A stretch of DNA of 64,000 bases. It comes from an uncultured Bacteroidales bacterium (GTDB lineage Bacteria; Bacteroidota; Bacteroidia; Bacteroidales; GCA-2748055). Below, piece by piece: positions 44,797-63,153 of the stretch. Position 1 is the first letter of the stretch. Each line of letters starts with the position of its first letter. The position numbers and the translations under genes are program-made. The notes below the pieces were generated by a model. The model was given only the letters and a program-made list of their open reading frames with translations. It ran no database searches and was not told the DNA's origin. The stretch lies in contig CAVVVN010000009.1 of NCBI GenBank assembly GCA_963751705.1, positions 88,697-152,696 on the forward strand. Reading direction: 5' to 3'.

Positions 44797-44843
44797 TTGA
44801 TTGTTCTTTTGAGTTTGATATGTGATCTTTCACTTATATAAAA

Positions 44844-45533: not shown

Positions 45534-45922
45534 AGCTGTTCATATTAATTTTGGATTCTTTTTCACTCAATTTATATCTTCTTACTAAGACTAAAAGATT
45601 AATAACTCTTTAAAATTATTCATTCGTATTTGAAAATAATAATAGATCCCAAAGTGCGATTGCCCTAAGCTTAGAGTAAATTCGCGTACTACTGAGAAGG
45701 TTTTCTGCCTTTTCCCCCAGAAGAAGTGATAGGCAGTGTGTAATTTTAACAGTATTAGGTGGCGAATTCCTGCTTCGAATATATGGATTAGTGCTTGAGG
45801 TGTAATTTATTGAGGGCTTCAAGGCTAACCAGTTGCCACCCAGAATATCGGGGGTGATAACGCACGAAAATCTCTTAACTCCAAATGATCTATAAACATT
45901 GTTGGCGTTAGTGTTTAGGTTT

Positions 45923-46936
45923 TTAATCGTCAATACTTAAGACTATCTTACCTTCCACTTCATATTTTTCCACAAGTTTATGTGCTTCTGCTGCTTGTTC
46001 TAATTTCATTACTTTTCCAATAACAGGTTTGATTTTTCTTTCGGCCAAAAGCTTGAATAACACATTTAAATCTTCTCTGAACCATTCTGGATGTTTTTTT
46101 CGAAATGAAGTTATTACATAGAATTCAGTAGACGGTTTAGATGGCAGCAAATTCCAAAACTTGATCTTAAAATAATCAAGCACAACATGTCCATCTTTGC
46201 CACTTGCAGCATTTTGATATCCGAAACCAACCAAGATCCCATCTTTTCTTAATATGCTTAAAGAACGTGGAAAATAATTGCCCCCAATAGGGTCGAAAAC
46301 GGCATCTATCCCATTGGGTTCGTTTTTTCCTATTAGCTCAACGAAGTCTTCGTTTTCGTAGTCAATAGGAATTGCACCCATGTCTCTGATAAACTTATGT
46401 TTACTTTTTGAAGCTGTTCCATACATTTTCAGGTTCAATAGTCTGCCCAATTGCAAAAGTGCGGTGCCTACGGCTCCTGAACATGCATGAATCAAAATTG
46501 TATTGCCATTTTTTACTTTTATGCAACGGTTTAACATTTGATATGCTGTCAGGTAAGTTAGTATCATACTAACTGCTTCACCATTATCCAAATTATCAGG
46601 GACTGGGACAACAGAATTTGCATCAAGGCATATGTATTCGGTATATGCCCCGATTACTGTCAGGTCAGCAACTTTTTGTCCGATTGATAAATGCTTGACT
46701 CCTGCGCCAAGGACATCTACCACACCTACTAAATCATATCCTGGCGAAAATGGCGGTTTATTTCTAACGGCTGGATAAATTCCACGTCGAATAAGGGTAT
46801 CAGTAAAGCATGCACTGGTTGTTAATACTTTGACTCTGACTTGTCCTTTTTTGGGCGTTGGAAGCTCTTTTTCTGTTACTTTTTGCAACACTTCTGGTGC
46901 TCCAAATTTTGATATGACTATTCGATTATATGTCAT
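45923..46936 (-). CDS. Medium-chain dehydrogenase/reductase (quinone oxidoreductase-like)
   Basis: PGYDLVG, YLTAYQML, SGAVG, GKIVL. Confidence 0.88.
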   Translation of the reverse strand: MTYNRIVISKFGAPEVLQKVTEKELPTPKKGQVRVKVLTTSACFTDTLIRRGIYPAVRNKPPFSPGYDLVGVVDVLGAGVKHLSIGQKVADLTVIGAYTEYICLDANSVVPVPDNLDNGEAVSMILTYLTAYQMLNRCIKVKNGNTILIHACSGAVGTALLQLGRLLNLKMYGTASKSKHKFIRDMGAIPIDYENEDFVELIGKNEPNGIDAVFDPIGGNYFPRSLSILRKDGILVGFGYQNAASGKDGHVVLDYFKIKFWNLLPSKPSTEFYVITSFRKKHPEWFREDLNVLFKLLAERKIKPVIGKVMKLEQAAEAHKLVEKYEVEGKIVLSIDD

Positions 46937-46982
46937 TTATGTTTCTGAAAATGTTATTTGTATACTAAGCAACTTGCCATAA

Positions 46983-48074
46983 TTATTCAGTAATAAATTC
47001 ACCCCGAATCAGATTAAATGAATCATTTTCTTTTCGTCCTGTAAAAATCAGGGAAAAATGTTTTCCATCTGCACTAAGCCATTTGTTCGAGAAATTCCAG
47101 TAAAATGTATTTAACGGGAAATGTCCTTCACCCCACTTTTGTTGATAGAGGACTGTAGTCCATGGACCCCAGGGTTCCGGCGCATCAAATATACCAATGT
47201 TGCCGCGATGAGTTTCTGTATGTTCGCTTGTTAACAGATATCTTTTTAATCGGGAATTGTAACTAACATTGATACACCAGCCAACTCCATCAGGGTTTTC
47301 AAATACAGGTTTTCGTTCTTTATTATCTTTTGTCCAGATTGGGTCGCTGCCTTCCATCCCTGCAAAAAACGAGTAAGCTCTCTGAATTGCTATAGAATCT
47401 TTATGAACACGTGCCAAATCTATTAGTCCTGGTTTTTGACAATTTAGCCAATCAACCTTATCTTCATAATCATCAGGTCCTTCATAAGACTGAAAACGAA
47501 TCAGGTATACATAAACGAAATTATCTCTCGCATTTTCATAATTTTTGTCATAATTACAAAGGGTTGGCATCATAATGCCTTCTTCTCTTGTAAATGCCCA
47601 ATTCGCAAATTTCCAACTCCTTCCATGATCTTCGGAAAATGCAATTTTCGTTTGATTAAATTGGTCGATATTAGTTTGAAAGAGACCAACCCACATATAT
47701 AAAATCCCTCCTATACAAACTATTCCATAACTTTTCCCAATTACATTGCTGTCATTTTCGCTATTATACCCTCCCCAAATATTTACTGGTGTAAAATCAT
47801 GCCAATTCCCTTGGATGCAAGCGACTCCAATACTTGAGCGACCTATACTGTTTGTTCCTCCAAATCCACCTCCATCTCCCCAAACTGTATACTGATTATC
47901 ATCATCCGCCCAAGTAACCGGCCAATTGTCGCTCCCAGAGGCTAGTCTTAAATGAGAAGACCAATTAAATGTAATTTGTCTAATAATAGGACTAGGTGGA
48001 TACGGCACTTCCTGTGAAATTGCTATTGTTGCATTTAACAACAGACCTAGCATAATTATTAGTTTTATTTTCAT
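46983..48074 (-). CDS. DUF4185-like secreted beta-propeller protein
   Basis: GSDNWPVTW, WGDGGG, SEDHGRSW Asp-box, APEPWGPW. Confidence 0.7.
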   Translation of the reverse strand: MKIKLIIMLGLLLNATIAISQEVPYPPSPIIRQITFNWSSHLRLASGSDNWPVTWADDDNQYTVWGDGGGFGGTNSIGRSSIGVACIQGNWHDFTPVNIWGGYNSENDSNVIGKSYGIVCIGGILYMWVGLFQTNIDQFNQTKIAFSEDHGRSWKFANWAFTREEGIMMPTLCNYDKNYENARDNFVYVYLIRFQSYEGPDDYEDKVDWLNCQKPGLIDLARVHKDSIAIQRAYSFFAGMEGSDPIWTKDNKERKPVFENPDGVGWCINVSYNSRLKRYLLTSEHTETHRGNIGIFDAPEPWGPWTTVLYQQKWGEGHFPLNTFYWNFSNKWLSADGKHFSLIFTGRKENDSFNLIRGEFITE

Positions 48075-48095
48075 TGGAACAAATTATGTAGATTA

Positions 48096-48228
48096 GGGCT
48101 AAGGTTATATATATGATTGGTGCGGCTTAAAATCCATAAAGGTTTTCAGCTAGCCCAATTAAATACTGGAAACATTGGTTTTAAATGAAGTGCTAATGCA
48201 AGCATAAAGTATATGTATCGTTGTAACC
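48096..48228. repeat. Degenerate attC-like palindrome upstream of the DUF4185 gene
   Basis: GGGCTAAG-GTTATATATATG...TGC pairs imperfectly with GCATAAAGTATATGTATC-GTTGTAACC. Confidence 0.5.
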
Positions 48229-48643
48229 CGATTAATAATCTGAGCCCACTGATTTAGTTAGTATTGACTGATTGGTTTGATATATATTTTGTAACATTAA
48301 AAAAGGTATCTACCCAATAATCTTGTTCATTTTCTTTAAGATAGATTAATAATTCCTCCAAAGCTTATTATAAGAATATTAGCCAATTGCGGGCTTCATA
48401 CCAATCAAGTTATTAGTGAATTAAAGCTTGCTAAAGTGCTTTAATATATTGCTGTTACAGCTATTATTTTTATGCCTTCACTCCAGGTGACAGATTTAAA
48501 CCAAGGCCAAAATTTTTCCAACTTTCACCACGAAGATAGAAATAAATAGAATTAGGATTTCGCCTATTTTGTATAGCTGAGATGTTTGCAACTGTTTTCC
48601 AATTTCTGCAAAAGGCGTGACAGGCAGTATGGAATTAAACAAT

Positions 48644-49727
48644 GTTATGAGCTTTTTTTCCTTTTCACAATTTTCACTATTCGATTATATACGATTTCCG
48701 CTAAATTCCAGGTGTATCCACCACTTGTATTTACAAACTGAATAACGACCGCATCAATGTCTTTGTGATACCTGGCAATACTAGAGTATCCTGGCAATAA
48801 TCCTGTATGTTCATATGCATAAATAGTTGAATAAATAGCTTGTTCATTATCATTTTGCAAAGAGCCATCGTTTAATGCCCGCATGAATATGCCCACATCC
48901 TCCGCAGTAGCAACCATTGAGCCGGCAGGGCTTGTGAAATCATTATACTTTAAATCACCATCATAAGATACGTCATACCCACTCATAACATCGTCTAAAT
49001 CCACTTCACTAAGCAAACTGTAAGTATTTTTCAGTCCAAGCGGTATCAAAATTTCCATCCTGATATATTGGTGATGGCTATATCCCAATGTTTTATCAAG
49101 GATTTCGCCTATCAACAAATAATTCGTATTTGAATAACTATATTTTTTATCAGGTTCAAAGTCAGCAGGCGTATCAAGTACTAACTTAAGATTTTCTCGA
49201 TTGGCTTTCGGTGGGCTTTCCCAATAGCCAGGGGTGTCCGTATAATTGGGAATTCCACTTCTATGCTGCACCATCAATCTCAAGGTAATTTTTTCTGCAT
49301 TTTCAATTCTTCCCACAAGTTCCGGAAGGTAATCAGCGAGGGTTTTATCCAAAGACAATTGATTTTCATTTACCAATTTAGCGACAGCAACAGCAACATA
49401 TAACTTGCTGATGCTGGCAATCTTGAATAAGGCTTGCGGGTCGGCAGGAATTTTATTTTTTCGGTCATGCCAGCCTGCGGCATAAAATTCCGGTGGCTTC
49501 CCAGCTTGGTCCACGTATACAATCATGCCGTCCAATCCATATCCGATGGCATCATTGACTTGTTCCTGAACTGTATCAGGCATTGGTGCTAACCATGCTC
49601 TTACCAGAATCCATGGTACGAACACCAGAGAGCTTATGCTTGCAATAATTAATACTAGTCTGAGTATTCGCTTTGTTTGTTTTTTTGTCATACTATTTCA
49701 GGACAGTTTTTTTTAATTGCTCATAAC
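48644..49727 (-). mobile_element. Putative gene cassette carrying the serine hydrolase
   Basis: Bounded by GTTATGAGC (48644-48652) and its exact reverse complement GCTCATAAC (49719-49727); the stop codon lies inside the boundary. Confidence 0.7.
48645..49691 (-). CDS. Serine hydrolase, beta-lactamase/class C-like family
   Basis: SxxK (ASISK), YxN (YSNTNY), HTG; N-terminal TM helix. Confidence 0.9.
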   Translation of the reverse strand: MTKKQTKRILRLVLIIASISSLVFVPWILVRAWLAPMPDTVQEQVNDAIGYGLDGMIVYVDQAGKPPEFYAAGWHDRKNKIPADPQALFKIASISKLYVAVAVAKLVNENQLSLDKTLADYLPELVGRIENAEKITLRLMVQHRSGIPNYTDTPGYWESPPKANRENLKLVLDTPADFEPDKKYSYSNTNYLLIGEILDKTLGYSHHQYIRMEILIPLGLKNTYSLLSEVDLDDVMSGYDVSYDGDLKYNDFTSPAGSMVATAEDVGIFMRALNDGSLQNDNEQAIYSTIYAYEHTGLLPGYSSIARYHKDIDAVVIQFVNTSGGYTWNLAEIVYNRIVKIVKRKKSS

Positions 49728-49853
49728 GTTTGCGTTTATGAAACGTTGAGGATTACGCGCTAATATCCTATCAAACTTTACCAAACTTGATGCGAGGCAT
49801 AATGTTTGCAGCACCACTTAAATAACAATGTTTAATAAACGATGCTGTAGGGC
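49719..49853. repeat. attC-like imperfect palindrome between the serine hydrolase and S41 cassettes
   Basis: GCTCATAAC...GCTGTAGGGC; arms 49733-49748 and 49826-49841 are 14/16 complementary. Confidence 0.75.
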
Positions 49854-51309
49854 GTTTTAATTTGTCAGAAAACATATTTCTTCCATTTCCAAATCAGTGT
49901 TTGACAGGTATGATTTAGCTGTGTAATATACTTTATAGTCAGGTATAATTCCGTGATGATTATCGGGAATTAATATTTCATTATTAAACCGGAAAAGCGG
50001 AAAACTAATGATGATTTTTGAATTTGGAAGTTCAAGCTTCTGAAAGCTATTCGCATTGCATCCTGTTTCGCCACCCGCAGTCTCTTGGCCAATACAAATT
50101 GCGGAAGCTTTATATTTGAGATAAGCCGCAAGTGTACATGAAGATGATGCTGTATATCCATCTGTCAGGACGAAAATTTTCCCTGTAAATAGCTTTTTCT
50201 TAGGATAAGTAAGGTTGGTAATGTACTTTATTCCTGAATCTGTTACCTTATGCCGAGTTGTTTTCTCCCAGAACCAAACTCCTGCCAGTTTCAATTTAGA
50301 GCTCAAATATTTACCTGCATTTCCTTTGGGCCTGAAGTCAATCTGAGATAGTGTATCGGATAGGATGTATGATAAAAAATCAAGGGTGCTTCTCGTGGAG
50401 CCCCCTCCATTGCCTCTTAAATCTATTACCAAAGTCTTGATTGGCTTGTCATCTAATTGCTGAAATATTTTCTCGTTTACTTTCTTATAGTTACCATAGT
50501 CCATCGATTTAATCTTTAAATACATGGTATTCTGAGTTAGATTGAATAACTCGACAGACTTCGCACTAATTAACGAATTTGATTTGGGTTGAAAATATTG
50601 AAATTTATTTGGCGAATAATTTTTTACAGCTTTTATGTTGATTTCAGCTATCTCATCATTGGTTTTTTGATATTTTATTCTAAAATCATCGGTACCAATA
50701 AAACACCTTCTGATTAATATTTCAGAATAATCATTTATAATGGAGTAGCCTAATGTTTTCTGATGTCCGTCAACCGGTTGATAAATAATAAGCTTATTTA
50801 TTATCTCCGTCGCGGGCATGTCGTTAATGGAGATTACTTTGATAGGAAGGTCTATTTGTGGGTTGTTATCATTAAATTCTGCATCCAGGATGTACAGGCC
50901 CGAAGAATCAGCAAAACAGCGAACAGGCAAGTATTTGTTCTCTCCAATTTGTTCACGATATAGTTCAGCCATTGGTGATTCTTCTATTTTGGTATGAGAA
51001 CATCCCACTTTACATAGGGCCTCACGAATACTATTTTCATATTCAAAAGCAGTGAGCTTTCCAAGCGATTGATTCTGTACATGGCTTATATAGGAATCCA
51101 ATTCGTTGGTCCATGCTTTGTTTAAAGTTACTGGATGTCCTTCTGTTATTGCTGTATTGAGATAAATCAAGTCTTCAATTAATTTATCCTTTGACAAGAT
51201 TTGAGAACTCGAATTACATCCAAGCATACATAAAACCGGTATGAAAAAATGAATTTTTAGAAATTTTCGTTTCATATGACTCGTCCTGTTCTTTTAAATG
51301 CCCTACAAC
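49844..51309 (-). mobile_element. Putative gene cassette carrying the S41 peptidase
   Basis: Bounded by GCTGTAGGGC (49844-49853) and GCCCTACAAC (51300-51309), 9/10 complementary. Confidence 0.7.
49857..51275 (-). CDS. S41 family peptidase lipoprotein
   Basis: Lipobox MLGC; IDLRGNGGG, TASS, IGQETAG, GIIPD; AT-rich. Confidence 0.88.
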   Translation of the reverse strand: MKRKFLKIHFFIPVLCMLGCNSSSQILSKDKLIEDLIYLNTAITEGHPVTLNKAWTNELDSYISHVQNQSLGKLTAFEYENSIREALCKVGCSHTKIEESPMAELYREQIGENKYLPVRCFADSSGLYILDAEFNDNNPQIDLPIKVISINDMPATEIINKLIIYQPVDGHQKTLGYSIINDYSEILIRRCFIGTDDFRIKYQKTNDEIAEINIKAVKNYSPNKFQYFQPKSNSLISAKSVELFNLTQNTMYLKIKSMDYGNYKKVNEKIFQQLDDKPIKTLVIDLRGNGGGSTRSTLDFLSYILSDTLSQIDFRPKGNAGKYLSSKLKLAGVWFWEKTTRHKVTDSGIKYITNLTYPKKKLFTGKIFVLTDGYTASSSCTLAAYLKYKASAICIGQETAGGETGCNANSFQKLELPNSKIIISFPLFRFNNEILIPDNHHGIIPDYKVYYTAKSYLSNTDLEMEEICFLTN

Positions 51310-51457
51310 GGTTTATGCAAACGCTGTGTTGGCGCTCCGGTCCTCATTCCAACCAGCCTTGATCTCTTGCGAAACTGAGAATCCTTTTACCTGGCCTCCC
51401 AATAAGTACCGGAACGGAACTTGGCGAGGGCGTTGCCTTTGCAATCGTGTTGTTTAG
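51300..51457. repeat. attC-like imperfect palindrome upstream of the S41 cassette
   Basis: ACAAC-GGTTTA-TGCAAA pairs with TTTGCA-ATCGT-GTTGT; ends GTTGTTTAG. Confidence 0.65.
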
Positions 51458-51585
51458 TTAGTTATAAAATGCTTTCACAATATGGTGTTTGCACAACCTA
51501 AGTATACAATCTACGAATTTTAGTTGTACAAATCAGAAAGAACAAAAGAGAGGATAAAGCTTAATTCAGCAGGATCTAAGGTAAT

Positions 51586-51866
51586 TTGGGTCGACTGGCA
51601 ATAGAACGTGGGCCAGTAGTCTATTGCGCCGAAGAAGCCGATAACCAGGTCAGTGTCTTTAGTGTTTCAATTGACCAGGAGATGATGCTTGAAACTGAAT
51701 TCCAGGAAGACCTGCTTGGGGAAGTTACCGTTTTAAGCGGCCAGGCGATGAAAATTGATGGCTGCGGAAATGATTATCCGTCGACGCTTGAAATGATCCC
51801 ATATTTCTCCTGGCGTAACAGGGGGCAAATGAAATGGCCGTCTGGCTACAGCGGAAATCAAGGTAA
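51586..51866 (+). pseudogene. C-terminal remnant of a GH127-like beta-L-arabinofuranosidase
   Basis: GRLAIERGPVVYCAE...IPYFSWRNRG; adding one G at 51821-51825 restores NRGANEMAVWL; 5' part absent. Confidence 0.8.
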
Positions 51867-51919
51867 ATTATACAACACACAGGAATTTTTGTTAAAATGC
51901 AGTACAAAAAGTTAACAGC

Positions 51920-54772
51920 ATGAAACTATGTAAAGCAATTGTCTTATTAAGCTCCATTCTTTTGCTTGCCTGCTCTCAGGAACCTGCGCCCCTAAAGATT
52001 ACCAACCTGGAATGTGAATACCTGGTCAATCCCCTTGCAATGGATGTACTTGAACCCCGCCTTAGCTGGAAGTTAGAAGCATTAAATGATCAGGTTTATA
52101 ACCAGAAGCAAAAGGCATATCAGATTTTAGTTGCCGGTTCTCCTGAAAAGCTGACGGAACAAGCGGCTGATCTATGGAACAGCGGAAGAGTTGAATCGGA
52201 CAAAACGGCGCAAATTATCTATGAGGGAAAACCTTTGGAAAGCATGCAGTTCTGTTATTGGAAAGTGAAAGTCTGGAACAAGGAAAATGAGGTTTCACCT
52301 TGGAGTGAACCTGCCTTCTGGAGGATGGGCCTGCTGGAAGAAACGGACTGGAAGGCACAATGGATTGGAGATGAACCCGATTTGAGGCAAAAAGCTTACC
52401 GTGCATATTTGGATCAGCATAATCCGGTAAATGATGGAGCTTTGAAAAATGTTAGGCCTATACCTCCCCCTTCTTCGATGTTACGGAAGAAATTTAGGAT
52501 TGATAAGAAGGTCAGGAGAGCCTTCCTCTATGCTTCGGCGCTGGGATATTATGAAATTTGGCTCAATGGCCATAAAGCAGGTGACCAGGTCCTCGCACCT
52601 GAATGGACCGATTACAACAAAAGAGTGCAGTACCAGGTGTATGATGTCAGCAAAGCTCTCAGGGAAGGAGATAATTTAATTTCTTCGGTGTTAGGTGATG
52701 GGTGGTACCTGGGTATGCTGGGTCCCACCAAATGGCATGCCGAGTATCCCCGCCGGGGCTATTATGGAAATGACCGCCGGCTGATAGCGCAACTAATGGT
52801 CGAATATAATGATGGGACAAAACTGGTAGTAACAACTGATGGTTCCTGGAAAATAAACGCCGATGGATATATTATCGATGCCGACAATTTCCGGGGACAG
52901 ACTATTGATGCCCGTAAAATTCCTGCCGGATGGAAAAAGGCGGATTTTGATGATAATTTATGGAAGAATGCTTTCGTTGATGCCTCAATCGACAAAAACC
53001 TTGAAGCACAGAAGAATGAACCCATCAGGGTTTATGATACACTCTCCCCTGTCCATATTCATCAAAAGGGAGATAAATATATCATTGACTTTGGTCAAAA
53101 CCTTGCAGGATTTACCAAATTGACAATAAAAGGAGACAGGGGAGATTCCATTACCCTGAGACATGGTGAAATGCTTACGGACGACGGTTTACTTTACACA
53201 AGCAACCTGGCAGCTGCCATCCAGGAAGATCATTATCTGCTTTCCGGCGGTGAGGATATTTTTGAGCCCACTTTTACTTATCATGGTTTCCGTTACGTGG
53301 AGATTTCCGGATTAACCGATGCCCCCGAAAAAGAGATGATTAAAGCCTTGGCTGTCTCCTCCGATCCGTTAGTAACGGGTAACTTTGAATGCTCTAATCC
53401 AAAACTGAACCAGCTATGGAGCAATATCCTGTGGACCCAGCGTAGCAATATGACAAGTGTTCCCACAGACTGTCCCCAACGCGATGAGCGTATGGGATGG
53501 ATGGGGGATGCCCAGGTTTTTTGCCAGACCAGCATGTTTAATATGGATATGGCTGCTTTCTACACCAAATGGTTAAAAGATATAAGGGATGCGCAATCGC
53601 AGCGGGGTACCTTCCCTGATATCGCCCCACATGCCAACGACCCCGATAGCCGTTTCAGCAATGCCCCTGCATGGGCAGATGCCGGTATGATCATTCCATG
53701 GCGGATGTACCAGAATTACGGCGATACGGAAATTCTTCGTCTGCATTATCATGCCATGAAACGGTATCTGGAAAATATCCGGCAGCAAAATCCGGATCAT
53801 TTATGGCTCCATGATACCGGAAATCACTATGGGGACTGGCTTAATGCCAATACGATTATAGCAGATGAATACTCAAATACTCGCGGCGAAATTCCCAAAG
53901 ATGTTTTTGCCACCGCTTTTTATGCCAATTCGGTCAGGCTCTTCAGTAGAATGGCTGAAATTCTTGGTAACGAAAAAGATGCAGCCGAATATTTCAAGCT
54001 CTTTGAGGACATCCGGAGGAAGTTTAACGATACCTATGTCAACTCTGAGTTCAGGATAAAAGGGAATACACAATCGGCCTATGCCTTGGCTCTGCACTTT
54101 GATTTGCTACCTCAAGAGAACCAGAAGGAAGCATTTGATCATATGATCGAATGCATCGAAGAATACGATTATCGCATTTCTACGGGTTTTGTCACCACAT
54201 TAATGATGATGAAAGAATTGGTGAAATGGGGGAGAACCGATATTGCCTGGCAATTGCTTGAGTCGGAACGTTTTCCCTCGTGGATATATTCCATCAATCA
54301 GGGAGCTACCACCATATGGGAACGGTGGGATGGATATGTGAAAGGGAGAGGATTTCAGAATCCAGGGATGAATTCGTTCAATCACTACTCTATCGGAGCG
54401 GTTGGGGAGTGGATGTACAGGGTAATTCTGGGAATAAATCCATCTGAAGAGCACCCTGGATTCAAACACTTTATCATACATCCCCGTCCAGGTGGTACTT
54501 TAACCTGGGCAAGGGGTCATTATAATTCAATCAACGGATTGATTTCATCTGAGTGGAAATTGGAGAATGGATTATTTTCTCTTGAGATTGTGATTCCTAT
54601 AAATACAACCGCTACAGTTGTTTTACCTTGTGAAACCCATGAAAAGATCAAATTAAATTCAAAACCGGTTTCTTCGGCTGAAATTGATAAAAAGCATCTG
54701 ACTGAAAATGAAACAGTCTTGGAACTGGGATCCGGAAAATATCAGATTTTGGTACCAAGCAGTTTTGATTGA
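51920..54772 (+). CDS. Alpha-L-rhamnosidase (GH78) lipoprotein
   Basis: Lipobox LLAC; DFGQN, FTYHGFRY, PTDCPQRDERMGW.GD, ATTIWERW, NSFNHY. Confidence 0.95.
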   Translation: MKLCKAIVLLSSILLLACSQEPAPLKITNLECEYLVNPLAMDVLEPRLSWKLEALNDQVYNQKQKAYQILVAGSPEKLTEQAADLWNSGRVESDKTAQIIYEGKPLESMQFCYWKVKVWNKENEVSPWSEPAFWRMGLLEETDWKAQWIGDEPDLRQKAYRAYLDQHNPVNDGALKNVRPIPPPSSMLRKKFRIDKKVRRAFLYASALGYYEIWLNGHKAGDQVLAPEWTDYNKRVQYQVYDVSKALREGDNLISSVLGDGWYLGMLGPTKWHAEYPRRGYYGNDRRLIAQLMVEYNDGTKLVVTTDGSWKINADGYIIDADNFRGQTIDARKIPAGWKKADFDDNLWKNAFVDASIDKNLEAQKNEPIRVYDTLSPVHIHQKGDKYIIDFGQNLAGFTKLTIKGDRGDSITLRHGEMLTDDGLLYTSNLAAAIQEDHYLLSGGEDIFEPTFTYHGFRYVEISGLTDAPEKEMIKALAVSSDPLVTGNFECSNPKLNQLWSNILWTQRSNMTSVPTDCPQRDERMGWMGDAQVFCQTSMFNMDMAAFYTKWLKDIRDAQSQRGTFPDIAPHANDPDSRFSNAPAWADAGMIIPWRMYQNYGDTEILRLHYHAMKRYLENIRQQNPDHLWLHDTGNHYGDWLNANTIIADEYSNTRGEIPKDVFATAFYANSVRLFSRMAEILGNEKDAAEYFKLFEDIRRKFNDTYVNSEFRIKGNTQSAYALALHFDLLPQENQKEAFDHMIECIEEYDYRISTGFVTTLMMMKELVKWGRTDIAWQLLESERFPSWIYSINQGATTIWERWDGYVKGRGFQNPGMNSFNHYSIGAVGEWMYRVILGINPSEEHPGFKHFIIHPRPGGTLTWARGHYNSINGLISSEWKLENGLFSLEIVIPINTTATVVLPCETHEKIKLNSKPVSSAEIDKKHLTENETVLELGSGKYQILVPSSFD

Positions 54773-55013
54773 ACTATACCTGCACGACCCTTCGTCTCTT
54801 TAACTCCTGCCAGAAACGGGATAATTTGTTTGGGTAAGTGGGCATTACAGTGAAATTACTTACTGCAAGTTTTTATTATTTTAAGGTCAAGTGTATATGC
54901 TGGTCTGGCTCTTTGCTTGCCCAAATAGCCTGGCATATGACACAACAGGCTGTTTTTTTATTAACTATTTTATTATCAACTTTTTATTTCAAGTACCTCT
55001 TAGAAAAATAGAG

Positions 55014-55021
55014 TACCTTTG
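55014..55021 (+). promoter_or_regulatory. -7 box TACCTTTG upstream of the ceo-like gene
   Basis: Exact TAnnTTTG match. Confidence 0.5.
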
Positions 55022-55177
55022 CAGCAGGTTTATATCATTTTTGATTTCAATTAGTCATTGCTCCATCTTGCTGCACTATTAGTATAATCTTTCACCCTAG
55101 CAGCTGATTCCTCATTGAATTACGATAGTCGGACCGACATTAATTTGTTATTTAACAAAATAAAGAACAGAGTACTC

Positions 55178-56326
55178 ATGAAAAAACTAACCTTAGGAGT
55201 TATTGGAACTTCAAGAAAAGAAGATGAAAAACGTGTTCCAATTCATCCGGAACATCTAGCACGTTTACCAGAGGATATTAGAAAACAACTAGTTTTTGAA
55301 AAGAGTTACGGAGCACCTTTTGGCTTAGATGATGATTTTTTTGTTTCTCAAACCGGAGGAGTTGCTTCTCGTCATGAATTATTAGCTGAACTTGGTTCGG
55401 TGATTATTGCGAAACCAGTATTAGCAGATCTACAAGAAATCCGTAAAGGGGGATTCATTTGGGGTTATCCGCATTGCGCTCAACAAGTAGACATAACACA
55501 AACTGCAATAGATCGGAAATTAACACTAATTGCATTTGAGGATATGTTTGTTTGGACTCCCAATGGTCAAATAGGAAGACATACGTTTTATAAGAATAAT
55601 GAAATGGCAGGCTATTGTGCAGTTATTCATGCGCTACAATTAAGGGGGATTGATGGCCATTATGGTAACCAGCGAAAAGCAGTTATTTTTAGTTTTGGGG
55701 CCGTTAGTCGTGGGGCTATTTATGCCCTAAAAGCCCATGGTTTCAGAGAAATTACAATTTGTATCCAAAGGCCTGACTACGAAGTTCGCGAAGAAATCTT
55801 AGATGTTCATTATGTTCGTATTCGTGAAGGTAAGAATGGAGAGGCCAGAATGGTAACTATTGAACATGATGGGACGGTTAGACCATTAGCAAACTTAATA
55901 AGTGAATCTGAAATCATTATTAATGGCACCTATCAGGATACAGACAATCCTATCAATTTTGTTACAGAAGATGAAAAAGACATTTTAAAAGCAGGAAGCT
56001 TAATTATTGATGTTAGCTGTGACGAAGGTATGGGGTTCTATTTTGCTAAACCTACTACTTTTAAAAACCCAATTCTAAAAATTAATAAAATCGACTATTA
56101 TGCAGTAGATCATACGCCAAGTTACTTATGGGAGAGTGCTTCGAGGTCAATATCTGCAGCACTCATAGTTTATCTACCAACAATTTTAGAAGGTCATGGA
56201 AGTTGGATGAAAAATCCCACAATTGAAAAGGCCATTAATATAGAAGATGGCGTGATTAAAAAGGAGTCTGTTTTAACTTTTCAGAATCGTTTTCCTCATT
56301 ATCCTCATGATTTCATAAGGAATTAG
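55178..56326 (+). CDS. N5-(carboxyethyl)ornithine synthase-like (AlaDH/PNT family)
   Basis: KEDEKRVPIHP, WGYPH, IAFEDM, NNEMAGY, IDVSCD, VDHTPS. Confidence 0.85.
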   Translation: MKKLTLGVIGTSRKEDEKRVPIHPEHLARLPEDIRKQLVFEKSYGAPFGLDDDFFVSQTGGVASRHELLAELGSVIIAKPVLADLQEIRKGGFIWGYPHCAQQVDITQTAIDRKLTLIAFEDMFVWTPNGQIGRHTFYKNNEMAGYCAVIHALQLRGIDGHYGNQRKAVIFSFGAVSRGAIYALKAHGFREITICIQRPDYEVREEILDVHYVRIREGKNGEARMVTIEHDGTVRPLANLISESEIIINGTYQDTDNPINFVTEDEKDILKAGSLIIDVSCDEGMGFYFAKPTTFKNPILKINKIDYYAVDHTPSYLWESASRSISAALIVYLPTILEGHGSWMKNPTIEKAINIEDGVIKKESVLTFQNRFPHYPHDFIRN

Positions 56327-56405
56327 CAGTCAGAACATATCTACTCTTGAGAACATTACATTATTATATAACTAACTGTTTTAGCTCTATGCAACAATAG
56401 AACTT

Positions 56406-56540
56406 GCCTCTAAGGTAACGTGCAAACGATGTGGGGTAATGGCGCTTGTTTTGCGTTTGAATTGATTATGTTATTATTGATTTATTATGGTCTGCAAAAC
56501 ATGTGACAAACCACATGGAGTTTACCTAATGTTGGCTGTC
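56406..56540. repeat. attC-like palindrome downstream of the membrane-protein cassette
   Basis: GCCTCTAAG...GTTGGCTGTC; arms ATGTGG/CCACAT (56429-34/56511-16) and TGTTTTGC/GCAAAACA (56447-54/56494-501). Confidence 0.6.
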
Positions 56541-57038
56541 GTAATTATTCTTTATTGAGTAATCTATTTGTGTAACACTCTTAATGAACTCAGCAATCTT
56601 TATTGCTCTTCTTCGACCAGTTTTAATAATTGGGACACTGCTGTTTTTAAGACCGAAATATACATCATATGAATTCAGATCATATTCAAATGGTACAACA
56701 CCATTAATGTAGCCTTTCCCTCTTTTTTTCTTGGGTACAATGAGGATTCTATCTGCTTCCTTTGGGATTTTGATTTTGTCAGTAGATAAACTTCTCCCAA
56801 AGACTCTATACTCTTTGAGAATCAACAGCCTTTTTTCATCTACAAAGAATCTGGTTCTGAATGTAACTAGTAAGAGTCCAATCCCCAGGAATCCAACCAT
56901 TCCCACAATGCGGCCAGATGATTCTTCTAAGGCAGAATAGTCTATGGCGAAAGTAGCTGAGTATATTGAAAAGCCTATAAATATATATCCCAGAATCACT
57001 AATGCAAGAGGAAAGAGATTATATGCATAATTCTTCAT
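56526..57038 (-). CDS. Hypothetical two-TM membrane protein
   Basis: ATG at 57038 (the longer listed ORF starts inside the palindrome); two hydrophobic helices followed by a basic soluble domain. Confidence 0.7.
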   Translation of the reverse strand: MKNYAYNLFPLALVILGYIFIGFSIYSATFAIDYSALEESSGRIVGMVGFLGIGLLLVTFRTRFFVDEKRLLILKEYRVFGRSLSTDKIKIPKEADRILIVPKKKRGKGYINGVVPFEYDLNSYDVYFGLKNSSVPIIKTGRRRAIKIAEFIKSVTQIDYSIKNNYDSQH

Positions 57039-57066
57039 ATCAATGTTTTCAATTAGGACAGCCAAC
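56531..57066 (-). mobile_element. Putative gene cassette carrying the membrane protein
   Basis: Bounded by GTTGGCTGTC (56531-56540) and its exact reverse complement GACAGCCAAC (57057-57066). Confidence 0.72.
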
Positions 57067-57156
57067 GGTCCGGGTATACTAACGTTTGCTAATGGCGGGC
57101 TTTTTGTCACAAAAAGCGTGATTAGGCAAATGGAGTATATATTATGTTAGCGTTAG
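57057..57156. repeat. attC-like palindrome (best preserved copy)
   Basis: GCCAAC...TATACT-AA-CGTTTGC-TAAT...GCTTTTTG-TCA-CAAAAAGC...ATTA-GGCAAATG-G-AGTATA...GTTAGCGTTAG. Confidence 0.75.
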
Positions 57157-57233
57157 TTGTTACTTCTTGCCTAATTAATATTTTACGACTCTTCTTTCCT
57201 GGTAGCTCATTATCAGGTTCTACAAGCAAATTT

Positions 57234-57482
57234 CTATCGTTTTTTAAATATCAAATTAAACAATAGCAATATTACAATTGCTCCCACAGCACCTGTCAGT
57301 ATGGCTCCAATCCAACCTGCGCCCAGATTAACACCAAGTTTCCCTAAAAGCCAGTAACCAACAATACTCCCAATAATCCCCACCACTATATTCCCAATGA
57401 AACCAAGGCCACTACCCTTGTAAACCATGCTGCCTAACCAGCCAGCTGCTCCACCAACGATAAGAATAACAATAATTTCCAT
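57234..57482 (-). CDS. GlsB/YeaQ/YmgE family stress-response membrane protein
   Basis: GGAAGWLG, GNIVVGIIGS..G, GAVGAIVIL. Confidence 0.9.
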   Translation of the reverse strand: MEIIVILIVGGAAGWLGSMVYKGSGLGFIGNIVVGIIGSIVGYWLLGKLGVNLGAGWIGAILTGAVGAIVILLLFNLIFKKR

Positions 57483-57588
57483 TTTCTTTTGGTTTTGAAT
57501 GATTTATAAATTGCCTATGCATATCTAATTCACTTAGTATTGCATTCCATGATGTCTCAATATGGACAACATAAATGCAAACCATTTC

Positions 57589-59358
57589 TTATAATCCCAG
57601 TTCATTATAAATGGCCTGAAATCTGGGATCACCTCTAAGAAATTCGAAATCCTTAGAGAATTTCTGGGAAAGTAAATTACTATCACCAGCCTCTAAACTC
57701 TTTTCCAACCATACAAGGGCTTGATCAGCATCCCCCAGAAGACTGTAAAAACATGCAATCCGAGAACTCAAATTTATCCTTAGATAGAAATCCGAAGAGC
57801 TATCTTCTTGCAGCCAAAGGATGTACCATTTGATGACTCCTTCGATGCCAGAATCCAGGAAAATGGTATCAATCATTTCGGAATCATTAACTGAAGGATC
57901 CATTGAAACGAGTTCTTTTAGATTTTCTACGGCTGCCAAATCATTGCCCAACCTGATATTACATTTAAAGATCCTTTGCATGGGCCATCCATACTGAAAA
58001 ATCTCGAGGGACTTCATGCAATCATCGATGGCCTCTTCATAGGCACCTTCATCATAATAGTAACTTGCACGCAAGTTATACATAGTCTGGGAATGGGGAT
58101 TGAGCCTGATGGCCTTGTCAATATATTTTAGAGCATCCTTGGTTTTCCCCAGAGTACTCATTAATTCTGAAAGATATTGGTAGGCATTGGCATCATTGGG
58201 ATTGAGCGAAATAGCATACAGCAACTCCTTTTCAGCCCCCTTCCAATCCCTGTCATACCATGTTAAAACTCCTCCAAGTGTAGCGTGGGCTTCAGGGAGA
58301 TTCTCATTGATTGAAAGGGCTTTTTTGAGGTAGGTCTTTGCTTTTTCATAGCCTTCATCCCTTGGGTAACTTCCCCACCAGCTCATAATAAAATACACAT
58401 CGCCCATTCCGGCGTAGGCGAGTGCATAATTGGGGTCGATTTCTATGGCCTGCTCGAAATTTTGTAAACTCTTATACAAATCTTCCTGCGTTCGCCGGTG
58501 CCAGAAATAGCGCCCCTTCAGGTACAGATTATAAGCGTCAGGATTTTCCGTTTGTCGATGACCGACTGTTTCTCCTTGATTGCCCAGCAGCTCAACTTTG
58601 AGCTTTTCAACAATTGCCATGGATATTTCATCCTGAATGCTGAAAATGTCATTGAACTCACGGTCAAATTGCTCTGACCAAAGGTGAGAGCCATCCTCTA
58701 CATTAATCAGTTGAGCGGTAATACGTAGCCGATCACCAGCCTTTTGCACACTCCCCTCCATGACCGTACTCACACCCAGAATCGCTCCTATTTCACGGAT
58801 ATCTGTCTGCTTGTTCTTGAAGGCAAAGGTGGAGGTTCTTGCGATGACCTTTAAGTTATCGAGTTGGGTTAAAGAATTTATTATCTCTTCGGCGATTCCA
58901 TCACAGAAATACTCCTGGTCCTGTTCTATACTCATATCTTCGAATGGTAAAACAGCAATGGATTTATCCACGATCTGCTTATCGTTAGCCCGGGGAACAA
59001 CATTCAATATGATCAGTCCCACAATCACTGCAAAACTGATATAGCTGGCGATCTTCCAGCTGCTGAAAGATTTGGAAATTTCCTCAGTTTTTAACTTATG
59101 AGCCGGTTCTGTCTTTACCATTCCCTCTTTCGGGTGGACGTCATAGATCCATGAGAAGATAATAACTATTGGGAATCCGATTGCAAGAAGAACAATAACG
59201 AAAGTAGGAGTCCAGTCCGGCAGGCGAAGTGGTTCAGTAATGTTGTTGATCAGCTCTATGATCACAAATGCTGCTCCTGCGTAGACCGTTATCACCCGAA
59301 CTACATTCCTTCTTTTTAGTTCCTGCCAGATTCGGGATAGTTTGTTGGGATTAGCCAT
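57589..59358 (-). CDS. Membrane-anchored TolB-like/TPR protein
   Basis: ELKRRNVVRV N-terminus, SIAVLPF, ARTSTF, EGSV, HLWSE, TPR repeats. Confidence 0.85.
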   Translation of the reverse strand: MANPNKLSRIWQELKRRNVVRVITVYAGAAFVIIELINNITEPLRLPDWTPTFVIVLLAIGFPIVIIFSWIYDVHPKEGMVKTEPAHKLKTEEISKSFSSWKIASYISFAVIVGLIILNVVPRANDKQIVDKSIAVLPFEDMSIEQDQEYFCDGIAEEIINSLTQLDNLKVIARTSTFAFKNKQTDIREIGAILGVSTVMEGSVQKAGDRLRITAQLINVEDGSHLWSEQFDREFNDIFSIQDEISMAIVEKLKVELLGNQGETVGHRQTENPDAYNLYLKGRYFWHRRTQEDLYKSLQNFEQAIEIDPNYALAYAGMGDVYFIMSWWGSYPRDEGYEKAKTYLKKALSINENLPEAHATLGGVLTWYDRDWKGAEKELLYAISLNPNDANAYQYLSELMSTLGKTKDALKYIDKAIRLNPHSQTMYNLRASYYYDEGAYEEAIDDCMKSLEIFQYGWPMQRIFKCNIRLGNDLAAVENLKELVSMDPSVNDSEMIDTIFLDSGIEGVIKWYILWLQEDSSSDFYLRINLSSRIACFYSLLGDADQALVWLEKSLEAGDSNLLSQKFSKDFEFLRGDPRFQAIYNELGL

Positions 59359-59502
59359 GAATAAGTATATACATAGTTACAAGTTAGGTTAGAAGTACAT
59401 ACGAGTCAAACAGAAGAAATTAATTATGAAAGCTAATGATTTGAATAAGCGACTTTGTTGATAGCGATATTTTTTGTTAAAAAACGTTTTCCATCACGGT
59501 TT

Positions 59503-62500
59503 TTATTTGGTTTTACTGGGATAATCTTTCATTTCAATAACAAGCTTTCCTCCTTTGATCAATTCTTTTTGGGAGAATTTCCACGCCTTCAACTTTTTCC
59601 CATTTAACCATGCTGAATGGATGTATTTATTTTCCCTGGATGCATTTTTTGCCTCTATGACAAAGGTGTTTCCTCCATAATAATCTTCGCTAAGATGAAT
59701 GGTTGCCTTCTCAAATCTGGGGCTTCCTAATTCATATTGCGGATTTGTTGATGCACCTCCATCCATTTGAAATAATCCCAGTGCACTCATAACATACCAT
59801 GCACTCATCTGGCCTTGATCTTCATCTCCCGGGTAAGCATCACGGGTGCCAGTACCATAGTAATTTTCCTGAATGGCTCTTGCCCATTTTTGAGTTAAGC
59901 AGGGCGCATTCGCATAATTAAAAAGGTAACAGGATTGCATATTGGGTTGGTTCCCGTGATTTATGGGATATTTTGAAAAATCATCCCCCAAAGCATTAAA
60001 ATTTACTTTTTCGGAACGATACATCGCACTATCCAGCCGTGTGATAAAACGTTCTTTGCCGATCGCATCTACCAGGCCGCCCATATCATGTGGCACAAAC
60101 CAGCTAAATTGCCAGGCATTTCCTTCGACAAAACCGGGAGTGTGATACGGACTAAAGGGTTCATACCATGTTCCGTCTGCATTTTTTGGTCGCATAAATC
60201 CTGATTTTGAATCAAAGATATTGCGCCAGTTTTGAGAGCGCTGCATAAACAACTCATAGTCATCGGTTTCCCCCAGTTCTTTGGCTGCCTGTGCCAAACA
60301 CCAGTCGTCAAAGGCGTATTCAAGTGTATTAGATACATAACTTTGATAAACACCTGTTTGCAGGGGTACATACCCATATTTCATATAAGCGACAAGGCTT
60401 TCGTTTCCCACTCGGCCACCTCCAGGATGCGATTCCTGGGGGAATGTGGTTTGTACATGGCGCATGGCCTCATATGCTTTTGTAAAATCAAAATCTCTAA
60501 TACCAGAGTTCCAGGCACCTACAATCCAGGGAATGGCGTGTTCGGCAACCATAACGCTTGAGTATTCACCAGCAAAAATACCCTTGGACAACCATCCGCC
60601 TATATCATAAAAAGCCAGTAAACTTTTTATTTGCATCGAGGAAAATTCGGGGGCAATAAGTTGATTCAGTTGCTGAACATTCCAAAAAGTATTCCAGAAC
60701 TCTCCCGAACATAATCGTTGATCCGGGTCTTTAAATGTTTGGATATTTTCATTCATATCTACCCATTGACCGTTTACATCACCCCAGGCCACTCTACCAG
60801 ACAATGCTCGATAAAGATTGGTATAAAACTTTACCTTTTGTAAGTAATCGTCCGTCTCTATTTCTATTCTGCCAAGATATGCGTTCCATACATTTTTTTG
60901 ATTTTGAACGACCTTTTCAAAATCGAAACCAAACGGTTCAGTAATTTCTTTTTCTAAGTTCAACCAGGCATTTTCTGTACTCACCAATGAAATAGAACTT
61001 CTTACTAAAATGGTGTCATTATCTTGCGTTTTAAAATTGATAAATGCACCTGTATGTCCTGAACCACTTATTTCGCTTACATCACTTAGCACGGACCCAT
61101 AGCTAAGACCATGATTTAATTTATCTAAGGCTTTTGCTTTGTCTGTCCACCCGCCCAAGCTATCGAAAGCTTTGTTAAACTCCAGAACAAAATATAATTT
61201 ATAGTCCTGAGTAAGTACATAGCCCGTCTTATCACATATATGGTGAACATAGCCCTCCACTTTCTTATTGCCAATTCGGGTAATTTTTGCTTCCACGTTT
61301 TGATAACTGTATTCAGCATCTGGATATGTGTCAATTAGGATGCGTGAAGCGTCAGATTTAGGGAAAACATATCGCTGAAGTCCGGACCGGGTAGTGGCTG
61401 TAAGGTCTACATGAACATTATAATCGGTCAAATCCACGCTATATATCCCGATTTCAGCTTTTTCTGCTGTTTTGTCAATGCGAGAACGATACCCAAGGTC
61501 CGGATTGTGCTCAGGTCCGGGTTTGGTCTGTAAAAGCCCTACGGTGGGCATCATCAAAAATCCGGACATGGTCCATTCTTGCGTATGATTAAATCCTGAA
61601 ATATTTTCGATTTGATATTCATAACCGGCTTTCCAGACCGTGCGCTCATTATTTGGACTAAGTTGAACCATAGGCATGGGGTGCCTTGGGCCGGGAGTAA
61701 TCATCCAGCGGGATCCGCTCGTTCCCATAAACTGATCTACATAATCGGGATAGCTTATTTTTTTTGCAGGGAAGCGTTGGAGTTGTTCCCTGAATTTAAG
61801 TTTTTCATCAATGTAGATTTCAACCTGGGATTTTCTTCTCTCTTTTACTGCCGGCAAATAGAACTCCAATATGCTATGGCCGGGCTCTATCTGTTTTTTT
61901 ATTTCTTTGTCATCCACAATTACCCTGATGGAAGCATGGTTTTTTTGCTGTCTGATATCTACCAGTAAGGGTTGGATGTTTTCTGTAGTGTTACCCATTT
62001 CGAAGTTGGCGAATGCAACAGATATCAACATCGTATTCCCCGGATAAACCAGGTGTAAATCCTCTGGTCCATCCATTTTAATGGCATCAAATACGCACCA
62101 GTTGCCTGTCATATTCTGAAAGATAATTTCATTGATGCCTTTCTTAAGTTCCTCTGCAGGAAATGAAAAGGAAATCGTCTGAGGATTCATGCCTAAGTCC
62201 TGAGGAATACCCCCCGATTTCCCAGCCTGCAACTGATGGTTATAAGCCTTCCCATTAATCACAGCACGAAATAGTGGCGGATTTTCCGAACTCACCTCTA
62301 TGATCTGGACCACAAGCGTGCAAGCGCCTTCCGCAGGCACGTAATCCAATTCAAAGTAAATAGGTAAGCGATGCAATGCCAATCCTGCCCAATAGCCGTA
62401 TCCCGAAAAACGGTCTTTAGGTCCTGGCAGGATATAAGGCCAGTCTTCGGATGGGATCGATTTGCCCACAACATAATACCTGTCCTTCCCGCCGAAACCC

Positions 62501-62691: not shown

Positions 62692-62704
62692 TTTATTCAG
62701 TAAT

Positions 62705-62880
62705 GTTTTATAAAGGAAGGCGGTATGTGATTGTAGCTGCTCTGGTAGAGCGGTAAAAACCAAGGAAGCGCGAATGCGCGCATCTGCACTGCAGACTGGA
62801 AGCAGGATTGTTTCGGCGAGGGATTTTACAGCGAAACCAGATGGTGCTGTTTTTGCCATACCGTCAACTTTGTTAGGAAC
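62705..62880. repeat. Long imperfect palindrome upstream of GH92 (attC-like family, degenerate)
   Basis: ~55-bp arms: GGCGGTATG...TCTGGT...GC.GTAAAA versus TTTTAC.GC...ACCAGA...CATACCGTC; ends GTTAGGAAC. Confidence 0.65.
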
Positions 62881-63153
62881 GTTGCTTATCTAAAGGTAAG
62901 TAAAAATCATAGAATTTGGTTTCGCAGAATAGAAGCGCATCCCAACATTCACATCGATATTTCAATTATTGCATTTTTTCCATTTACCCAGCGCTTAAAC
63001 ACAAATAGGTGGTCTATTACCCAATTTTACTTTGCGATTTTGTTTAGTGCTGCTAAGCTGCCTGAACGATTTTCAGGTAAGACTACACCTGAACCACGCG
63101 ATATAATCGCGCAAAAGCGGGGAATTCTCATAAGCCCTAAAATGCTAAGTTTT

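Follow-up and report, generated by a model that had tools for sequence, protein, structure and literature searches.

The locus described here raises the question of whether a run of co-oriented genes, separated by long imperfect palindromes, is an array of integron-type gene cassettes and, if so, which recombinase would move them. The window, i.e. the whole stretch of 64,000 nucleotides that was analysed, lies at C9:88697-152696 (contig C9) in the genome of an uncultured Bacteroidales bacterium, here called G000; the nearest relative, G059, is 92-97% identical to it. At 48.0-57.2 kb the window holds three minus-strand genes with 100-210 nucleotides of non-coding sequence between them, which a sequence-only reading had proposed to be mobile cassettes. 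The window genes are, with little room for doubt, site-specific recombination cassettes of integron type, and the stretch is probably the distal part of a chromosomal array of such promoterless cassettes. Going beyond the earlier proposal, it was concluded that the array belongs to a platform headed by a Xer-like recombinase without the insert specific to the integron integrase IntI, and not to a classical integron.

Gene cassettes of the window

On the gene strand, GTT and six or seven further bases stand before each ATG, and their reverse complement, ending in AAC, stands at the stop. The motifs quoted in the sequence-only reading were all found in their places. The serine hydrolase is bounded by GTTATGAGC at 48644-48652 and GCTCATAAC at 49719-49727 (9/9 positions matching), the S41 peptidase by GCTGTAGGGC at 49844-49853 and GCCCTACAAC at 51300-51309 (9/10), and the membrane protein by GTTGGCTGTC at 56531-56540 and GACAGCCAAC at 57057-57066 (10/10). 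The distance from GTT to ATG is 36, 34 and 28 nucleotides, respectively, as had been described (28-36 nucleotides), and the stops fall within the AAC box or at most 3 nucleotides away. The units are listed below; 26 array and neighbouring proteins were scanned with Pfam (E <= 0.001), and a slash marks the predicted crossover point.

48644-49727, minus strand: cassette 1, serine hydrolase with beta-lactamase fold (open reading frame (ORF) 48645-49691; PF00144, 1.5e-45); start G/TTATGAGC, end GCTCATAAC
49844-51309, minus strand: cassette 2, S41 peptidase (ORF 49857-51275; PF03572, 5e-22); start G/TTGTAGGGC, end GCCCTACAGC
56531-57066, minus strand: cassette 3, 170-amino-acid protein without Pfam match, the membrane protein of the sequence-only reading (ORF 56526-57038); start G/TTGGCTGTC, end GACAGCCAAC
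57221-59437, minus strand: upstream cassette-like unit, 82-amino-acid Transgly_assoc protein and 589-amino-acid TPR protein (Pfam); start A/TTAGCTTTC at 59437

In the scheme proposed here, a cassette would comprise a gene and an attC-like imperfect hairpin, and a tyrosine recombinase would cut between the first base of the R' box and the TT that follows. With the cut after that base, each site in the array would be composed of the R'' box of one cassette and the R' box of the next, and the two ends of a cassette would pair with each other only in the excised circle. As the cassettes leave no room for promoters, expression is predicted to come from the recombinase side.

The array extends beyond the window up to the end of the contig (C9:169620), and further end pairs at 9/9-10/10 are found there: GTTGGGTAC with GTACCCAAC, GTTAAGCAGC with GCTGCTTAAC, GTTGTGCAT with ATGCACAAC, and TTGGCAACC with GGTTGCCAA. 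Arrays have a GC content of 35-40%, array regions at 38-40% included, against 47.7% for the genome.

The matching of ends across genes exceeds chance genome-wide. An exact GTTNNNNNN/NNNNNNAAC match (GTT+6 with 6+AAC) between the sequence upstream of an ORF and its stop region was found for 9 of 4461 ORFs, while five shuffled pairings gave 0-3. Seven of these nine ORFs lie in cassette arrays, four of them at C9:137-164 kb. A looser TT+7 rule, which carries more background than the GTT+6 rule, was satisfied by 6/53 array ORFs versus 57/4408 others (odds ratio 9.7, p = 8.5e-5).

Architecture of the attC-like sites

A common site plan was derived by eye alignment and an anchored stem search. On the gene strand it reads R'' (ending in AAC), 1-3 nucleotides, L'', a variable middle of 20-200 nucleotides, L', 3-7 nucleotides often ending in ACC, and R' (beginning GTT or ATT). 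The cores are AAC and GTT, with mutated exceptions, and several boxes are altered. In length the sites vary from 58 to 257 nucleotides. The sites of the window are as follows.

48075-48643, minus strand: array tail, non-coding; R'' GCTCATAAC, ATT and L''-like GTTTAATTCC, i.e. the 5' half of the attC after the hydrolase (site A), then decayed remnants
49719-49853, minus strand: attC site B; R'' GCCCTACAGC, spacer, L'' GTTTATTAAAC ... L' GTTTCATAAAC, spacer GCAAAC, R' GTTATGAGC
51300-51507, minus strand: attC site C, long form; degenerate R'' (..ACTTAG), L'' GTGCAAAC, conserved inner repeat of ~150 nucleotides, L' GTTTGCAT, spacer AAACC, R' GTTGTAGGGC
56406-56540, minus strand: attC site D; R'' GACAGCCAAC, ATT, L'' AGGTAAAC ...; 3' half ambiguous (GTTACCT being L' or R')
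57057-57156, minus strand: attC site E; R'' ..CGCTAAC, ATA, L'' ATATATAC ... L' GTATAC, spacer CCGGACC, R' GTTGGCTGTC

In the sequence-only reading, site C had been drawn too short (it reaches ~51507, not 51457), and the 3' end of site D is ambiguous. The L'' box of site C, GTGCAAAC, lies at 51494-51487 on the minus strand, ~190 nucleotides upstream of L'. Four more copies of the site C repeat, at 83-86% identity, were found (C9:157565-157700, 163725-163866 and 167471-167620; C4:9538-9692); the repeat is confined to contigs C9 and C4, and in the other copies GTGCAAAC pairs with GTTTGCAC. Site D has relatives in genome G020 at 76-82% identity. Pieces of the array tail match intergenic and attC pieces of G059, where two more genes (233 and 268 amino acids) lie between them; of the cassettes still present in G059, the tail has kept just remnants. 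For site A, from 48652 leftwards, an L'/R' partner was sought in the sequence and no recognisable 3' half was found. Rfam gave no match at E <= 0.1 in window 44000-64000 and three array loci.

The L stem of site B has 12 Watson-Crick pairs, a level reached by none of 500 shuffles (folding z = -1.96); that of site D has just 5 pairs (p = 0.31; folding z = -0.58). Over 11 sites, the L stems have at least 9 Watson-Crick pairs in five (p <= 0.008 against shuffles) and 6-7 pairs in three. It had been stated that the two ends of one palindrome do not pair with each other, and this was borne out: complementarity within a site is 3-4/10 for sites B and D, 3-6/10 in 8 of 10 sites and 3-9/10 overall. 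For site B it is 4/10 in the array form versus 9/10 with the start of its own cassette. Over ten cassettes, R'' and R' are complementary at 8-10/10 with their own cassette start, versus 3-9/10 inside the site, the former figure holding partly by construction as these cassettes were picked for end matches of at least 8/9. On swapping each R' for the first bases of its own cassette (the circle form), the folding energy was lower in 9/10 cassettes, by 0.8-7.1 kcal/mol.

The paired boxes are 60-250 nucleotides apart, vary between cassettes and yet are complementary; hence, only single-strand folding or a cruciform would unite them. On this cassette-specific complementarity, we infer a tyrosine recombinase acting on folded single-stranded DNA, as the sequence-only reading had done.

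Breakpoints against the nearest relative

On comparing G000 with G059, which is syntenic with the window, it was found that site E, the attC before the membrane-protein cassette of G000, stands directly before the hydrolase cassette in G059. Matching sequence sets in at the TT of GTTATGAGC/GTTAGGAGC (window 49726), and the sequences upstream are unrelated. Hence, G000 has 7.36 kb (49728-57083) that G059 is without. A second break lies at window 59436, where G000 has A/TTAGCTTTC behind a GH92 (glycoside hydrolase family 92) gene and G059 has G/TTAGCTATC behind a proper attC. Homology (97.5%) of the TPR unit of G000 with G059 begins at the TT of the box, which in G059 reads GTTAGCTATC.

The upstream site keeps the first base of R', so the cut would lie between that base and TT. 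The G000/G059 breaks fall exactly at R', which supports the G/TT crossover as far as genome comparison can. The rearrangement is recent, since the two genomes are 92-97% identical and yet differ by whole cassettes at exact R' boundaries, and the array may be active at present. With the hydrolase behind a different attC in G059, homology running from G/TT and end matches concentrated in arrays, the earlier proposal of mobile integron-type cassettes is sustained.

Recombinases of the genome

No tyrosine recombinase was found within the window, in agreement with the sequence-only reading: a genome search with TIGR02249 (integron integrase, cut-off 265 bits) gave eight matches, all outside C9:88697-152696. 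Two candidates for the postulated recombinase were found elsewhere. A canonical IntI is encoded at C1:57369-58334 (415.6 bits), divergent from an array of a conserved attC family. The second, a Xer-like recombinase of 284 amino acids at C4:10393-11247, scored 229.9 bits with NF040815 (XerA-type, cut-off 220) and 220 bits with TIGR02249, which is below the cut-off. It is without the IntI-specific insert (I2) and TIGR02249 model positions 180-239, and aligned with Vibrio IntI (2a3v) in two pieces, with 56 IntI residues facing 13. The best solved relatives of this enzyme are archaeal XerA proteins, and a C-terminal ..PLD tail is common to it and IntI.

The linkage between the Xer-like gene and the arrays was seen in relatives. 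In G059 (C25) the gene heads, on the same strand, a contiguous array of ~18 kb running into the window-syntenic region, and in G013 more than 38 kb of co-oriented genes, the hydrolase included, lie behind it. It was found in 35/48 other genomes of the genus, often at most 2 kb from a contig end, and the ORF is intact in G000 and most of the genus. IntI above the cut-off occurs in 7/24 genomes, plus one truncated copy, and in 0/16 genomes from other families of the order; G059 and G057 have a canonical IntI as well. The Xer-like gene is present without an IntI match at E <= 1e-40 in G013, G022, G008 and G017, and window-type cassettes or site-C repeats are present in G013, G022 and G017.

A block 3' of the stop codon of the Xer-like gene is conserved between species up to ...CTAT-GTT and diverges thereafter. 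Six aligned species show four continuations after GTT (GTTCAGGCAC, GTTAGCAAC, GTTAGCACAC and GTTAAAGACC), and the same was seen by eye in most of 30 loci. By its sequence, the block would look like an attI-like primary insertion site. The upstream neighbour of the recombinase is a thioredoxin-domain housekeeping gene, so no partner protein was seen. The platform would consist of a co-oriented Xer-like recombinase of ~280 amino acids without I2, an attI-like block ending in GTT and then the cassettes; in G000 the array is broken up by glycoside-hydrolase gene blocks, with the recombinase on C4. The C4 and C9 contig ends look compatible with mutual abutment. The Xer-like enzyme is the likely recombinase of these cassettes; the odds of its recombining single-stranded DNA with no I2-like element are about even.

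An ORF-less cassette of ~320 nucleotides, termed U, was observed at C4:~10010-10327 and C9:~167190-167480, with four copies in G059 and five in G057. In several species it occupies the first cassette position behind the attI-like site, and it is met again inside arrays. The first 85 nucleotides fold, with the start pairing with the cassette's own R'' box and compensatory changes in three pairs. The core of its attC is AAT/ATT, and the L stem is 12 bp long. A partial copy of the L'' region of U (..GCAGCACTAAAC AAAATCGC..) lies in the window at 62848-63165, in non-coding sequence upstream of the GH92 gene.

Spread across Bacteroidota

A scan with one genome per species found 573 relatives, and the best 80 loci (44-64% identity) were examined. 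The loci come from Marinilabiliales, Prolixibacteraceae, Cytophagales, Flavobacteriales, gut Bacteroides, Phocaeicola, Parabacteroides and Alistipes. Exact TT+7/7+AA end matches numbered 63 in 268 kb of downstream co-oriented sequence versus 20 in 1086 kb of control sequence, taken from both strands upstream and from the opposite strand downstream. The base after ..AA, which the search left free, was C in 60/63 matches versus 5/20 in the controls. The base before TT was A in 34, G in 27 and T in 2 of the 63 matches, the following TT being fixed. At least one match was found in 25/41 loci having at least 3 kb downstream, and the median distance from TT to ATG was 26 nucleotides.

Hairpins of 45-55 nucleotides with an ATT core form the sites in P. 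vulgatus ATCC 8482 and B. finegoldii, where Imm43, Imm-NTF2, Macro and ankyrin proteins are among the cassette products. The C4 recombinase shares 50-53% identity with the homologues heading such arrays in B. finegoldii, P. vulgatus and Parabacteroides, and the P. vulgatus and B. finegoldii records with arrays contain no IntI above the cut-off. Seven B. finegoldii sites keep a two-helix hairpin, with 93.8% of cells paired, compensatory changes in 4/10 pairs and 0/500 shuffles as high, a count favoured by the hairpin having been drawn from the very sequences then counted. One bulged base in the 5' arm is present in some, but not all, sites of B. finegoldii and P. vulgatus.

As a separate observation, the first gene behind the rAID-type recombinase in one B. 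finegoldii locus (L099:6999-8039) encodes an IS91-family Y2 transposase (PF04986 and a zinc-binding domain).

Relation to known systems

The closest described system is rAID-1, the name under which the platform is already in print; it was reported in 226/423 Bacteroidales genomes and called "reminiscent of integrons" (Ross et al. 2019, preprint 10.1101/471110, available in part). To count as rAID-1, an array needs a 5' XerD-like recombinase that shares at least 44% identity with the reference from B. fragilis NCTC 9343, and at least two co-directional downstream genes with a GC content of at most 41%. As here, rAID-1 has a XerD-like tyrosine recombinase at the 5' end with co-directional genes after it, low array GC, a conserved motif behind the recombinase stop and repetitive intergenic sequences. 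Co-directional low-GC genes follow the recombinase for ~18 kb in G059 and for more than 38 kb in G013, at 38-40% GC. The cargo differs: here it consists of the hydrolase, S41 peptidases, TPR proteins, SnoaL/DUF4440 proteins and glycoside hydrolases, whereas rAID-1 carries orphan immunity genes. The scan of 26 array and neighbouring proteins detected no immunity family at E <= 0.001; six of these proteins are without a Pfam match and could hide such genes. The sites also differ (60-260 nucleotides and a GTT core here, 45-55 nucleotides and an ATT core in gut rAID arrays), as does the habitat: the runs holding the window stretch are from marine sediment, whereas rAID-1 is from gut Bacteroidales.

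The accessible part of the rAID-1 preprint describes motif enrichment, and R/L boxes, a crossover point and the missing IntI insert do not appear in it (10.1101/471110). The words integron, attC, hairpin and excision are absent from the available text of a 2025 rAID preprint (PMC12247911). Excerpts of integron surveys count Bacteroidota among the integron-bearing phyla (PMC8618304), and the IntegronFinder 2.0 survey, in the part available, gives one complete Bacteroidota integron, in Salinibacter (PMC9024848). In the accessible part of a classification of tyrosine recombinases, the insert "is not fully conserved" within the integron-like subgroup (PMC8138268). A literature search, outside which lay subscription journals, the journal version of Ross et al. 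and supplements, returned no link of rAID or Bacteroidota Xer-like recombinases to attC boxes, attI or a G/TT crossover.

Classical integrons share with the present array promoterless co-oriented cassettes, the R''-L''...L'-R' order with AAC and GTT cores, a crossover placed behind the first base of R', R''/R' complementarity that is specific to each cassette, cassettes without an ORF and assembly breaks at repeats. In contrast, the recombinase here is without the IntI insert and below the TIGR02249 cut-off, and it is co-oriented with the cassettes, where that of a classical integron is divergent. The cores deviate from GTTRRRY, A can stand as the first base, and the spacers are unequal (1-3 versus 3-7 nucleotides). 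An integron in the strict sense has an I2-bearing integrase beside the array, and neither the C4 enzyme nor that of G059 (C25) is of this kind. The attC anatomy and an attI-like site are found here, and a crossover between G and TT is indicated by comparative evidence.

The same genome contains a classical integron, at C1:36000-58334, with IntI and ~10 conserved attC sites, whose cassette ends are specific and complementary. Like the C9 array, it has cassette-specific ends (e.g. GTTATACTG/CAGTATAAC), low GC and an inner motif common to some sites. Unlike it, it has a true IntI, which is divergent, and a conserved attC of ~100 nucleotides (..ACTAAAGCCGACCG...CGGCGGCTTAGT-TCCACC-GTT) that is absent from C9. 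Two arrays of the IntI-linked attC family without IntI were observed at C3:956600-972600 and C3:1825600-1839700 (14 and 9 motif matches). A gene pair (134 amino acids, no Pfam match, and 307 amino acids) lies between IntI and the array (C1:55586-56928) and again at a C3 array edge (C3:1822157-1823499); it looks like an insertion sequence and may have split the integron.

The pdif modules of Acinetobacter plasmids hold genes between inverted sites and are moved by Xer-type recombinases without the IntI insert. Their sites are conserved 28-bp double-stranded XerC/XerD sites, whereas the paired boxes here vary per cassette and are 60-250 nucleotides apart.

The array is best filed as an environmental, long-attC variant of the rAID-1 platform, beside the classical integron. 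The new part seems to be the proposed mechanism, together with what follows from it for the role of the IntI insert. We would suggest, as a tentative proposal with slightly less than even chances, that rAID-type arrays are a second Bacteroidota-wide integron lineage, in which an I2-less recombinase acts on folded single-stranded attC sites at A/TT or G/TT.

Alternative explanations and evidence to the contrary

The alternative that survives best, though it is unlikely, holds that the array is a cluster of attC sites without an integrase of its own (CALIN), that the C1 IntI moves the cassettes in trans and that the Xer-like gene serves another purpose or the first site only. IntI enzymes tolerate varied attC sites, and the bona fide IntI of G000, above the profile cut-off, like those of G059 and G057, could act in trans; moreover, site A and several C9 sites carry an inner motif (GTCACGC.CTTTGCAGA) that also occurs in the IntI-linked attC family. 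However, the two attC families are unmixed: a 20-nucleotide motif of the IntI-linked family has 39 matches in the genome, with 10 on C1, 25 on C3 (in three clusters), four singles and none on C9. G013, G022 and G017 have window-type cassettes or site-C repeats with no IntI match, the gut Bacteroides arrays bear the same end signature with no IntI, and the Xer-like gene is immediately followed by the conserved site with GTT at its end.

Far less probable is a fossil array, in which recombination would belong to the past, the window copies would be immobile and the boundaries would be relics. Parts of the array may indeed be fossil, since it contains large inserted non-cassette blocks and mutated boxes: R'' is CAGC for the S41 peptidase and AAG or AAA elsewhere, and TTT or ATT stands for GTT. 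The missing 3' half of site A, the weak stem of site D and the lack of variant joints in public-run contigs would be in line with this. Against it stand the whole-cassette differences between G000 and G059 at exact R' boundaries and the intact recombinase ORF. The chance that the palindromes are miniature inverted-repeat transposable elements or repetitive extragenic palindromes, or that the end matches are fortuitous, is negligible: although they are intergenic imperfect palindromes of 100-200 nucleotides and the site C subfamily has five copies, they are without self-matching terminal repeats, the partners of their ends lie across a gene, end matches are enriched in arrays, homology breaks at G/TT or A/TT, and no target-site duplication was noticed on reading the sequences, no systematic search having been made.

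Several observations weigh against a mobile array served by the Xer-like enzyme. In G000, the recombinase (C4) and the window (C9) are on separate contigs. The L stems are weak in 3/11 sites, site D among them, and single-site folding is modest, with z < -3 in 3/10 sites and values of -0.6 to -2.0 for the remainder (-0.6 to -1.6 for D, E and four more); weak folding of the array form would be expected if R'' and R' are mismatched in the array. An unanchored crude stem search in 62 sites of other genera gave no gain (median 6 pairs versus 5.6 in shuffles), and RNAalifold predicted no pairs for an alignment that mixed sites of P. vulgatus and B. finegoldii. A third context of the hydrolase gene is found in G013, where the 5' boundary of the gene is not at G/TT. 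No joint at a cassette boundary was found in the contigs of public runs (the four best being marine-sediment metagenomes of one study, from which the stretch may derive), a comparison that gave just short skips inside genes and many loose ends and says nothing about mobility. Finally, the Xer-like enzyme without I2 is an unproven catalyst, since the I2 helix is reported, in the accessible part of the source, as the innovation enabling single-strand recombination by IntI (PMC7790495).

Other features of the array

An inverted block of 4.8 kb interrupts the array between sites C and D.

51585-56406, plus strand: inverted 4.8-kb block, GC 41.5% (genes by Pfam)
51586-51915, plus strand: GH127 C-terminal fragment (truncated)
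51920-54772, plus strand: GH78 alpha-L-rhamnosidase
55178-56326, plus strand: alanine-dehydrogenase-like gene
51575-51584, plus strand: 10-bp direct repeat TCTAAGGTAA, left copy; the truncated GH127 ORF begins 2 nucleotides beyond
56407-56416, plus strand: 10-bp direct repeat TCTAAGGTAA, right copy; on the minus strand, the R' box of site D, G/TTACCTTAGA

By a rough estimate, the chance expectation of such a repeat flanking the block is ~0.005. The repeat-flanked block fits either integration of a circle at R' or a microhomology event. The alanine-dehydrogenase-like gene is inverted within the G013 array, too.

Three co-oriented genes, GH92 (1118 amino acids), GH43 (358 amino acids) and GH95 (783 amino acids), were observed inside the array at window 59503-64000 and C9:152697-155371. 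This GH95-GH43-GH92 block lies between an attC with R' GTTATGCCC and the A/TTAGCTTTC box, has a GC content of 41% and contains no attC. There are three paralogous TPR cassettes of 589-606 amino acids, at window 57589-59358, C9:165300-167114 and C9:167725-169545, with near-identical ends ((G/A)TTAGCTGTC and GACAGCTAAC) and extra copies in G059 and G013; the paralogues of 604 and 606 amino acids (C9:165300-169545) end in GACAGCTAAC.

In marine-sediment metagenome contigs, the summed depth was ~250 at 49104-49537 (part of the hydrolase gene), 65-75 at 51274-51707 (site C) and 40-59 at 55180-56047 (the alanine-dehydrogenase-like gene), with flanks at ~10. As contig depth is raised several-fold, the community may hold many related copies; the depth sums other organisms, too, and gives no copy number.

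Significance

In integron research, as far as the accessible sources go, the I2 insert is regarded as the step that permitted single-strand attC recombination, and surveys requiring I2 find almost no integrons in Bacteroidota. In the available parts of the gut literature, rAID arrays are treated as stores of immunity genes, and the entry and exit of cassettes are not described there. The present analysis joins the two fields, and the rAID arrays gain exact boundaries, a crossover point, an attI-like site, a spread over the phylum and sediment hosts with metabolic cargo.

If a second lineage does exist, structure-specific attC recombination would need no IntI insert or would predate it, and integron-like capture would be widespread in a phylum regarded as poor in integrons. 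Free-living members would carry general accessory genes (glycoside hydrolases and peptidases), and not toxin immunity alone. With two systems and unmixed attC families, this genome would be a natural test bed for specificity. Should the Xer-like enzyme prove to be the catalyst, dedicated cassette-finding tools would be justified, since current attC and IntI models probably miss such cassettes. The origin of integron recombination would become directly testable, and there would be a mechanism by which gut Bacteroides turn over their immunity genes.

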